Shown in pieces: positions 8,493 to 8,564 of a DNA stretch of 27,214 nt. The notes beneath the pieces are model-generated. The model searched no databases. It was not told the origin of the DNA and saw only the letters and a list, made by a program, of their open reading frames with translations. This DNA comes from a virus (taxonomy: Duplodnaviria > Heunggongvirae > Uroviricota > Caudoviricetes). How positions within the stretch are numbered: position 1 is the stretch's first letter; the number at the start of each line of letters is the position of its first letter. Position numbers and translations under genes: made by a program. The DNA lies in IMG/VR virus record IMGVR_UViG_3300039366_000144, positions 1 through 27,214 of that record, one strand, 5' to 3'.

Positions 8493-8514
8493 ATTCCCAA
8501 GCTTAGAATTTTCG

Positions 8515-8542
8515 CTATTGTGTACCGTATATTACACAATAG
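8515..8542. promoter_or_regulatory. Perfect 10-bp inverted repeat with 8-bp spacer (CTATTGTGTA-N8-TACACAATAG), operator-like, 23 to 50 bp upstream of the HEPN-like gene start
   Basis: Dyad read directly from sequence; flanked by AGCTTAGAATT / AGCTTAGTTA half-repeats. Confidence 0.4.
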
Positions 8543-8564
8543 CTTAGTTAGGGCGTAGGCGTCC

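Follow-up and report, generated by a model that had tools for sequence, protein, structure and literature searches.

Does a perfect inverted repeat in front of a putative RNase gene serve as the operator of a repressor, or does its symmetry have another origin? The question is raised by a 27,214-nt stretch of Caudoviricetes DNA (IMG/VR record IMGVR_UViG_3300039366_000144, positions 1 to 27,214), here called the window, which is 100% identical to Escherichia coli NZ_CP031215. In it a dyad lies shortly upstream of a minus-strand gene for a 310-aa HEPN-domain protein, and an earlier note, made from the sequence alone, had taken it for the site of a dimeric repressor. We give a probability of roughly 0.4 to another reading, in which the dyad would be the core promoter of a mobile single-gene cassette, a quasi-palindrome perfected in this allele and not a dedicated operator. 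The elements that this reading involves are the following.

7560..8492, minus strand: gene of the 310-aa protein, matching phrog_28161, whose N-terminal domain is alpha/beta and weakly uL10-like and whose C-terminal domain is a HEPN domain with R260-x4-H265
8495..8498, minus strand: Shine-Dalgarno-like GGGA, 3 nt before the ATG at 8492, read from the sequence
8514..8543, no strand: perfect inverted repeat (dyad) GCTATTGTGTA-N8-TACACAATAGC, with 11-bp arms and an 8-bp spacer, read from the sequence
8529..8534, minus strand: -10-like hexamer TAATAT preceded by TGTG, proposed from conservation, overlapping the promoter-distal arm at its end and the spacer over its first 4 nt
8521..8523, minus strand: predicted transcription start, placed 6-8 nt after the hexamer and inside the promoter-proximal arm, which would give a ~30-nt leader

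The dyad and its counterparts in homologous leaders

The two arms (8514-8524, GCTATTGTGTA, and 8533-8543, TACACAATAGC) are 100% complementary and enclose a spacer of 8 nt (CCGTATAT). Relative to the ATG at 8492 the dyad occupies the region 22-51 bp upstream, with its centre 36 nt from the ATG. The earlier note had placed a perfect 10-bp inverted repeat at 8515-8542, 23-50 bp upstream of the start codon; both statements are borne out for 10-bp arms, and the real arms are one base longer each. The 10-bp pattern is unique within the window and found no match in 100 shuffles. Perfect inverted repeats (minimum arm 11 nt, loop 3-12 nt) were counted in dinucleotide shuffles of the window: 0.08 were expected per shuffle and 6.5% of the shuffles held at least one; the window itself has 5 such loci, mostly terminator-like hairpins. 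The dyad is non-random, yet it belongs to a class that is common in the window, and in itself it is an ordinary promoter-region palindrome of uncertain function.

Nine homologous upstream regions, from genes whose proteins are 77-100% identical, were aligned without forcing. The invariant columns cluster in a motif TGTA-nn-AT, in which T40, G41, T42, A43 and A46 are invariant and T47 is found in 8/9 sequences. Written as a hexamer, this is TA(A/G)nAT, which takes the form TAATAT at 8534-8529 in the window and TAACAT or TAGCAT elsewhere, with TG(TG) before it, and its conserved bases fit the -10 positions T-12, A-11, A-8 and T-7. Alignment column 53, which corresponds to 8523 in the window and falls within the predicted start, is a purine in all nine. 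The symmetry follows a different course. Ordered by divergence, the nine leaders have 11, 11, 7, 6, 6, 7, 5, 4 and 2 Watson-Crick pairs in the dyad register (7/11 in an 88%-identical homologue, 2/11 at 78%), and only 2 columns of the right, promoter-proximal arm are invariant. The perfect symmetry is specific to the E. coli allele in the window and is not a conserved property.

The changes that produced it can be polarised by the outgroups. In the lineage of the window, position 8524 went from C to T and position 8521 from T to A, corresponding to derived states in alignment columns 52 and 55, each of which creates a pair; the neighbouring spacer was also rearranged, and an alternative alignment of this allele has AC gained in the spacer and TC lost from the arm. 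Template switching is indicated because the two changes, separated by 3 nt, are both at the loop end of one arm, and each pairs with an invariant base of the -10 arm. Quasi-palindrome template switching is a documented mutational mechanism in E. coli (PMC7202029), and the leader resembles the correction hotspots described there in being imperfect in relatives and perfect here, with changes at the loop end of one arm that copy the other arm. The clustering of changes that raise complementarity relative to the outgroups is compatible with this mechanism without proving it. The event here is deduced from nine sequences, and selection could give the same pattern.

Two other promoter candidates were considered and rejected. 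An upstream promoter P1 (TTGTGC ... TACTAT) has the wrong spacing in HEPN cassettes and its -10 is absent from the allele in the window, and the Pseudomonas-type leaders do not conserve GAAAAT (8513-8508), another candidate -10.

A mobile cassette with its own leader

The dyad is carried by a cassette of ~1.2 kb, from about 8560 to 7357, which consists of one gene with ~83 nt upstream and ~200 nt downstream. Of 5,426 complete E. coli genomes only 27 carry it, none of the copies falling below 99% identity, and it occurs in P2-like, lambdoid and island settings with the same junctions (lambdoid L002 and L034; P2-like L036). The setting in the window is an island, where the cassette stands beside a truncated P4-type integrase and tRNA-Pro-like remnants. 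In Qin/Rac-like lambdoid prophages it lies between a DUF977 gene and hokD, and in the P2-like context, compared with phage P2, it directly follows the tail-fibre assembly gene region. The 88%-identical homologue is flanked by P2-type genes for tail fibre and sheath. The contexts become homologous at GTGCCAAAAGCGGAC (8575-8561, minus strand) and cease to be so after a second hairpin, at these boundaries:

8561..8575, minus strand: 5' cassette boundary motif GTGCCAAAAGCGGAC, the loop and right arm of the 'A' hairpin GTCCGCTTT-GTGCC-AAAAGCGGAC; cargo-specific DNA begins at 8560
7357..7385, minus strand: 3' cassette boundary, the 'B' hairpin TTCTGCTG-TTCGCTC-ATAACAGAC; cross-context homology ends at 7354-7349

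The arms of the B hairpin contain TCTG/CAGA in the window and TCCG/CGGA in L002. The same unit with its own leader was found in unrelated phage backbones with sharp junctions, as in a moron or self-contained cargo cassette. No genome joins both flanks of the lambdoid slot directly, and this slot is always filled by some cargo. The dyad is the only conspicuous element of the short leader that travels with the gene, and it lies in the sole non-coding DNA that does so.

The protein encoded by the cassette has the features of a HEPN nuclease, since the four-helix HEPN fold forms its C-terminal half and carries the Rx4-6H motif as R260-x4-H265. Its family is broad, with 220 matches of ~310 aa in Enterobacteria, Pseudomonas, Burkholderia, Planctomycetota and others. 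The function of phrog_28161 is annotated as unknown and this family is absent from PADLOC-DB v2.0.0 (2023). A profile search of PDB gave nothing for the protein, and tblastn found no homologues in phage GenBank records. No DNA-binding domain (helix-turn-helix, HTH; ribbon-helix-helix, RHH; or winged HTH, wHTH) was recognised in it beside the uL10-like and HEPN domains.

A comparable single gene is HepS of the Salmonella prophage Gifsy-1, a solo-HEPN abortive-infection protein that is reported to be constitutively expressed and non-toxic on overexpression, and for which no operator is described (PMC13043305). Both are partnerless HEPN genes in an accessory slot downstream of lambdoid replication genes, with an Rx4-6H nuclease presumed to be inactive at rest. 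HepS differs in its motif, R100-H105, and its standalone homologues have at most 250 aa (PMC13043305), against 310 aa, a uL10-like N-terminal domain and R260-H265 here; the likeness is one of kind and slot, with no sequence relationship shown.

The cassette needs its own promoter because it consists of one gene and a leader of ~83 nt and retains at least 99% identity in unrelated contexts. In the reading that we favour, the promoter-distal arm and the spacer would carry the -10-type element TGTG-TAATAT (8538-8529), judged by its conservation, and the promoter-proximal arm would cover the start at ~8523-8521, giving a leader of ~30 nt with GGGA as ribosome-binding site. Such a promoter may allow expression of the cassette in the lysogen at any landing place, be it the P2 Z/fun slot, the lambdoid slot from the replication genes to hokD, or islands. 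Relatives would have a quasi-palindrome only, and in the E. coli allele the loop end of the proximal arm would have become the exact complement of the constrained -10 arm, most simply through a single template-switch event of quasi-palindrome correction. Expression would be essentially constitutive and, by analogy with HepS, the N-terminal domain may hold the HEPN RNase inactive after translation until a trigger arrives.

Several points weigh against this reading. A scan with the sigma-70 consensus called no promoter on the minus strand, which is the strand of the gene, so that the promoter region claimed in the earlier note is recognised by conservation: the dyad does overlap the only promoter-like element conserved among the homologues (TGTA-nn-AT), but promoter prediction found none on this strand. 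The -10-like TAATAT has no matching -35 element, and the TG before it misses the extended -10 register by one position; the promoter assignment is one inferred from conservation, and the start is a prediction. Moreover, relatives retain partial symmetry. In the dyad register 68.7% of cells are paired, compared with 13-49% in slid registers, a level reached in 6/500 shuffles, and one pair covaries from A-T to G-C. Given the excess of paired cells and this covariation, some selection for symmetry may have acted. A weak ancestral quasi-palindrome is likely, because the residual symmetry exceeds that of the controls. With every copy of the allele at least 99% identical, purifying selection acting on the arms cannot be judged. 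Finally, a perfect 22/22 palindrome right over -10 and +1 is what an operator is expected to look like.

Repressor, RNA hairpin and other explanations

A repressor operator is the main rival, and we regard it as possible but rather unlikely. A dimeric DNA-binding protein, either host-encoded, encoded elsewhere or the HEPN protein itself, would bind the palindrome, occlude -10 and +1 and keep the RNase gene low until relief. Of the earlier claim of a dimeric repressor site, the dyad itself and its position over a likely promoter stand: its half-sites are inverted and perfect over 22 bp (11+11 bp with an 8-bp spacer), they sit on the proposed -10 and start site where a bound protein would occlude both, every lineage-specific change raises their symmetry, and there is the covarying pair. 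The K-12 Qin region near hokD also holds relBE, with RelB annotated there as an antitoxin and DNA-binding transcriptional repressor; relBE adjoins hokD, at which the lambdoid slot of the HEPN cassette also ends. With the relBE operator relO and the LexA boxes of prophage toxins our locus shares dyad symmetry over a presumed core promoter, a toxic-type gene and a prophage accessory slot. It departs from them in that the dyad has no co-travelling DNA-binding gene, is present in a single copy per genome, misfits LexA, CRP and Ogr sites in sequence and spacing, and is not conserved as a symmetry in orthologous leaders.

The expectations that failed were those of half-sites conserved in orthologous leaders, of a regulon and of a partner protein. 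The cassette, with its one gene, encodes no regulator, in agreement with the observation in the earlier note that none is evident nearby; a MarR-family gene (5612-6136), 2.4 kb off, was rejected as a candidate, as it is part of the vat locus and does not accompany the cassette in lambdoid or P2-like phages. A factor encoded elsewhere in the prophage, as had been suggested, is unlikely because the identical cassette occurs in P2-like, lambdoid and island contexts. The 310-aa protein, composed of the uL10-like domain and HEPN, offers no HTH, RHH or wHTH for binding the site. A genome search for further copies of the dyad, proposed earlier as a way to a regulon, found it once per genome, in exactly the 27 carriers and nowhere else in the 5,426 E. 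coli genomes; BLAST found no second copy in these carriers, although it would miss diverged sites. Half-sites are enriched neither in the window (5 against 6.8 expected) nor in the two other contexts examined, which likewise have no further copy of the dyad, and in homologues the symmetry is lost.

The consensus sites are CTGT-N8-ACAG for LexA, TGTGA-N6-TCACA for CRP and TGT-N12-ACA centred near -55 for P2 Ogr. In a comparison by eye the dyad gives GTGT-N10-ACAC and TGTG-N12-CACA, with symmetric TGT/ACA spacings of N10 or N14, and a LexA, CRP or Ogr (Ogr/Delta) site was rejected. An operator conserved in distant homologues was likewise rejected, since the leaders of 15 distant loci and of the Enterobacter groups are unrelated and contain nothing equivalent to the dyad. 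Homologues of the L026 and L030 groups have unrelated upstream DNA with other AT-rich promoter-like leaders. In the Enterobacter-type homologues (L026-L029, L095 and L096; 75-76% identity) a short palindrome of their own, TCACATA-N4-TATGTGA, precedes the ATG by ~70 nt; it is perfect in L026-L029, and L095 and L096 have a degraded form. Their leaders contain a TATAAT-type hexamer ~27 nt before the ATG. The premise that a solo HEPN RNase must be repressed at the level of transcription is weakened by HepS: a transcriptional repressor is not a necessity, because HepS is reported to be constitutively expressed and non-toxic when overexpressed. The dyad is proven in position; its function as an operator is unproven, several expectations of such a site having been tested and disappointed.

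Two further elements lie near the dyad.

8500..8506, plus strand: AGCTTAG, first copy of a direct repeat with its second copy at 8541-8547, at chance level and not conserved
8482..8509, plus strand: promoter-like TTGATT-16-TAGAAT, with 9/12 consensus matches, which would start a transcript at ~8516, at the dyad

The AGCTTAG copies had been described as half-repeats flanking the dyad. Both exist, but they form a direct 7-nt repeat and not an inverted one, and the second copy overlaps the end of the dyad. The pair is absent from the 88%-identical homologue, and we treat it as chance because 5 other exact 7-nt direct repeats occur within the same 451 nt.

The dyad might instead act as RNA. If transcription began upstream of 8543, or came in from the flanking phage operon (the early-right one in lambdoid phages, the late V-G one in P2), an 11-bp stem 22 nt before the ATG could modulate processing, stability or translation of the HEPN message. 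A folding energy of -14.9 kcal/mol was obtained for the stem on both strands (z -5.2 and -6.3). In L002 and L023 the cassette points the same way as the phage operon upstream of it, and G-U pairs raise the pairing counts of the relatives. We nevertheless hold this role to be improbable, as the stem is not conserved in homologues, leaves the ribosome-binding site free and has no Rfam match even at E <=5, and there is no room for a promoter between the edge of the cassette (8560) and the dyad (8543). The stem has no U-tract and so is not a terminator; the search for intrinsic terminators found none in 8300-9300, the arms being 7/11 A/T and followed by GAAAATTC (minus strand) or TTAGTTAG (plus strand). 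Rfam returned 0 matches at gathering thresholds, and 0 at E <=5 for 7300-8700. An antisense or divergent small RNA, of which the dyad would be the 5' hairpin, is less probable still. It would start at ~8516 from the plus-strand TTGATT-16-TAGAAT, the sole sigma-70 consensus match near the dyad, so that the transcript would begin exactly at the stem, and would end near a weak stem and T4 at GGGCGtaggCGTCC-GCTTTT (8552-8572). However, promoter-like sites of this type are at chance frequency (2 in the region, with 2.9 expected from shuffles), codons 1-4 of the gene contain the -35, and the -10 is not conserved in Pseudomonas-type leaders. The scan does not recognise the supposed terminator, whose right half is the motif at the cassette boundary, and here too Rfam has no match. 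We give an equally slight chance to some other cis-acting DNA element, for instance a decoy or a site for self-immunity, comparable to the aba element of BstA, or a site at which the cassette recombines. The dyad is strictly linked to the cassette, whose junctions are precise and look site-specific; these junctions are the A and B hairpins, though, and not the dyad, homologous cassettes exist without a perfect dyad, and the 310-aa protein lacks a DNA-binding domain. We retain the core promoter as the preferred reading of the dyad.

Hairpin-bounded cargo units

The boundaries of the cassette are, in our view, more interesting than the dyad. Cargo is delimited by hairpin A, GTCCGCTTT-GTGCC-AAAAGCGGAC, before it and by hairpin B, GTCCGCTn-(A/T)CGCTC-AnAGCGGAC, after it; the hairpin closing the HEPN cargo, ...TTCGCTC-AAAGCGGAC, is related to the A hairpin. 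On the minus strand of the window the A and B positions are 8561-8588 and 7357-7385, and also 10551-10578 and 8980-9005. This second pair corresponds to a cassette directly upstream of the HEPN cassette, filled by the gene of a 327-aa predicted membrane protein (9278-10261, minus strand; phrog_5157, function unknown, no Pfam match above threshold), with a 3' hairpin GTCCGCT-N10-AGCGGAC followed by TTTT. Hairpin A is present, unannotated, in 2,663 of the 5,426 E. coli genomes. Junctions bounded by hairpins were also noted in L002, L091, L046, L097 and L098. They are common to P2, lambdoid prophages and an integrative and conjugative element (ICE), and in another Qin-like prophage (L091) the same junctions flank a different cargo, a DUF4209 gene. 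In the metagenome contig Ga0157371_10000287 (L046, 800-3440) they form a tandem array of at least 3 single-gene units, namely the HEPN homologue, an HNH_2 endonuclease on the other strand and a 69-aa open reading frame. The 2 complete junctions of this array, after the HEPN and HNH_2 units, are composites of B hairpin, 15 nt and A hairpin; in the third junction, which is degenerate, the gap is longer. The array adjoins a DUF4400 (ICE-type) gene, and its layout resembles that of an integron cassette array, with different sites and no integrase in view.

The arrangement recalls phage morons and the variable Z/fun locus of P2 in having a self-contained gene with its own leader between conserved phage genes. 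In P2 itself the boundary motif ...GTGCCAAAAGCGGA(C/A) comes right after gene G. A 2004 paper by Nilsson et al. proposed, to judge by its title, that recombination at the Z/fun locus of P2 is site-specific. The Z-region of P2-EC48 (record AJ512681) has an annotated 'left inverted repeat', and this contains the boundary motif. The junctions studied here differ from the P2 Z/fun locus in being found also in lambdoid prophages and a chromosomal island, and in tandem in an ICE-like contig. We take AJ512681 to be the record of Nilsson et al. 2004 (Mol Biol Evol 21:1).

Other repeats and remnants were found around the cassette. A second perfect inverted repeat lies in its 3' part, in a region that is not homologous in the 88% homologue:

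7468..7499, no strand: perfect 11-bp inverted repeat TCAGTTAACCC-N10-GGGTTAACTGA in the 3' untranslated part of the cassette, without a U-tract

To the right of the cassette, an ~80-nt element (8570-8650, plus strand) is matched in 1,555 E. coli genomes. This element and its counterpart in phage lambda (24162-24349, in the b region between ea31 and ea47) are degenerate tRNA-Pro-like sequences, both paralogous to a hybrid 'tRNA-Pro' at 10560-10641 that is annotated by PGAP and not called by ARAGORN. The 20-mer GGCTGCTATGTGCCAAAAGC is directly repeated at 8588-8569 and 10578-10559. On the other side, a tRNA 3'-end fragment (...GGTTCGACTCCTCTTATCGGCACCA) adjoins the truncated P4-type integrase, of which only the Arm-DNA-binding N-terminus is left (~7062-7140; 6571-6909); fragment and remnant mark the end of a decayed integrative island, against which the HEPN cassette lies. 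Farther away, the interval that separates the vat autotransporter gene from the MarR-family gene holds a perfect 13-bp inverted repeat, GCAGCAAAGGGAC-N9-GTCCCTTTGCTGC (5493-5527), which could either terminate vat or serve as the site of a regulator.

It is conceivable, if on balance doubtful, that the dyad-bearing unit belongs to an unrecognised integron-like cassette system. Defence-type genes with their own leaders would lie between A and B hairpins and be swapped precisely, by hairpin-directed recombination, among P2-like phages, lambdoid prophages, ICEs and islands, and the palindrome would be a portable on/off element, maybe bound as DNA or as an RNA hairpin by the uL10-like/HEPN protein of the cassette. 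The dyad matters only if it is such a portable switch of a single-gene HEPN abortive-infection module. What has been gained is a defined HEPN cassette of 1.2 kb, clonable with its native leader for phage-defence testing. A 2026 study of P2/P4 defence hotspots left the swapping mechanism unresolved and hairpins unmentioned (PMC13586616); the sharp hairpin junctions shared by P2-like, lambdoid and ICE hotspots bear on this fast swapping of defence loci.
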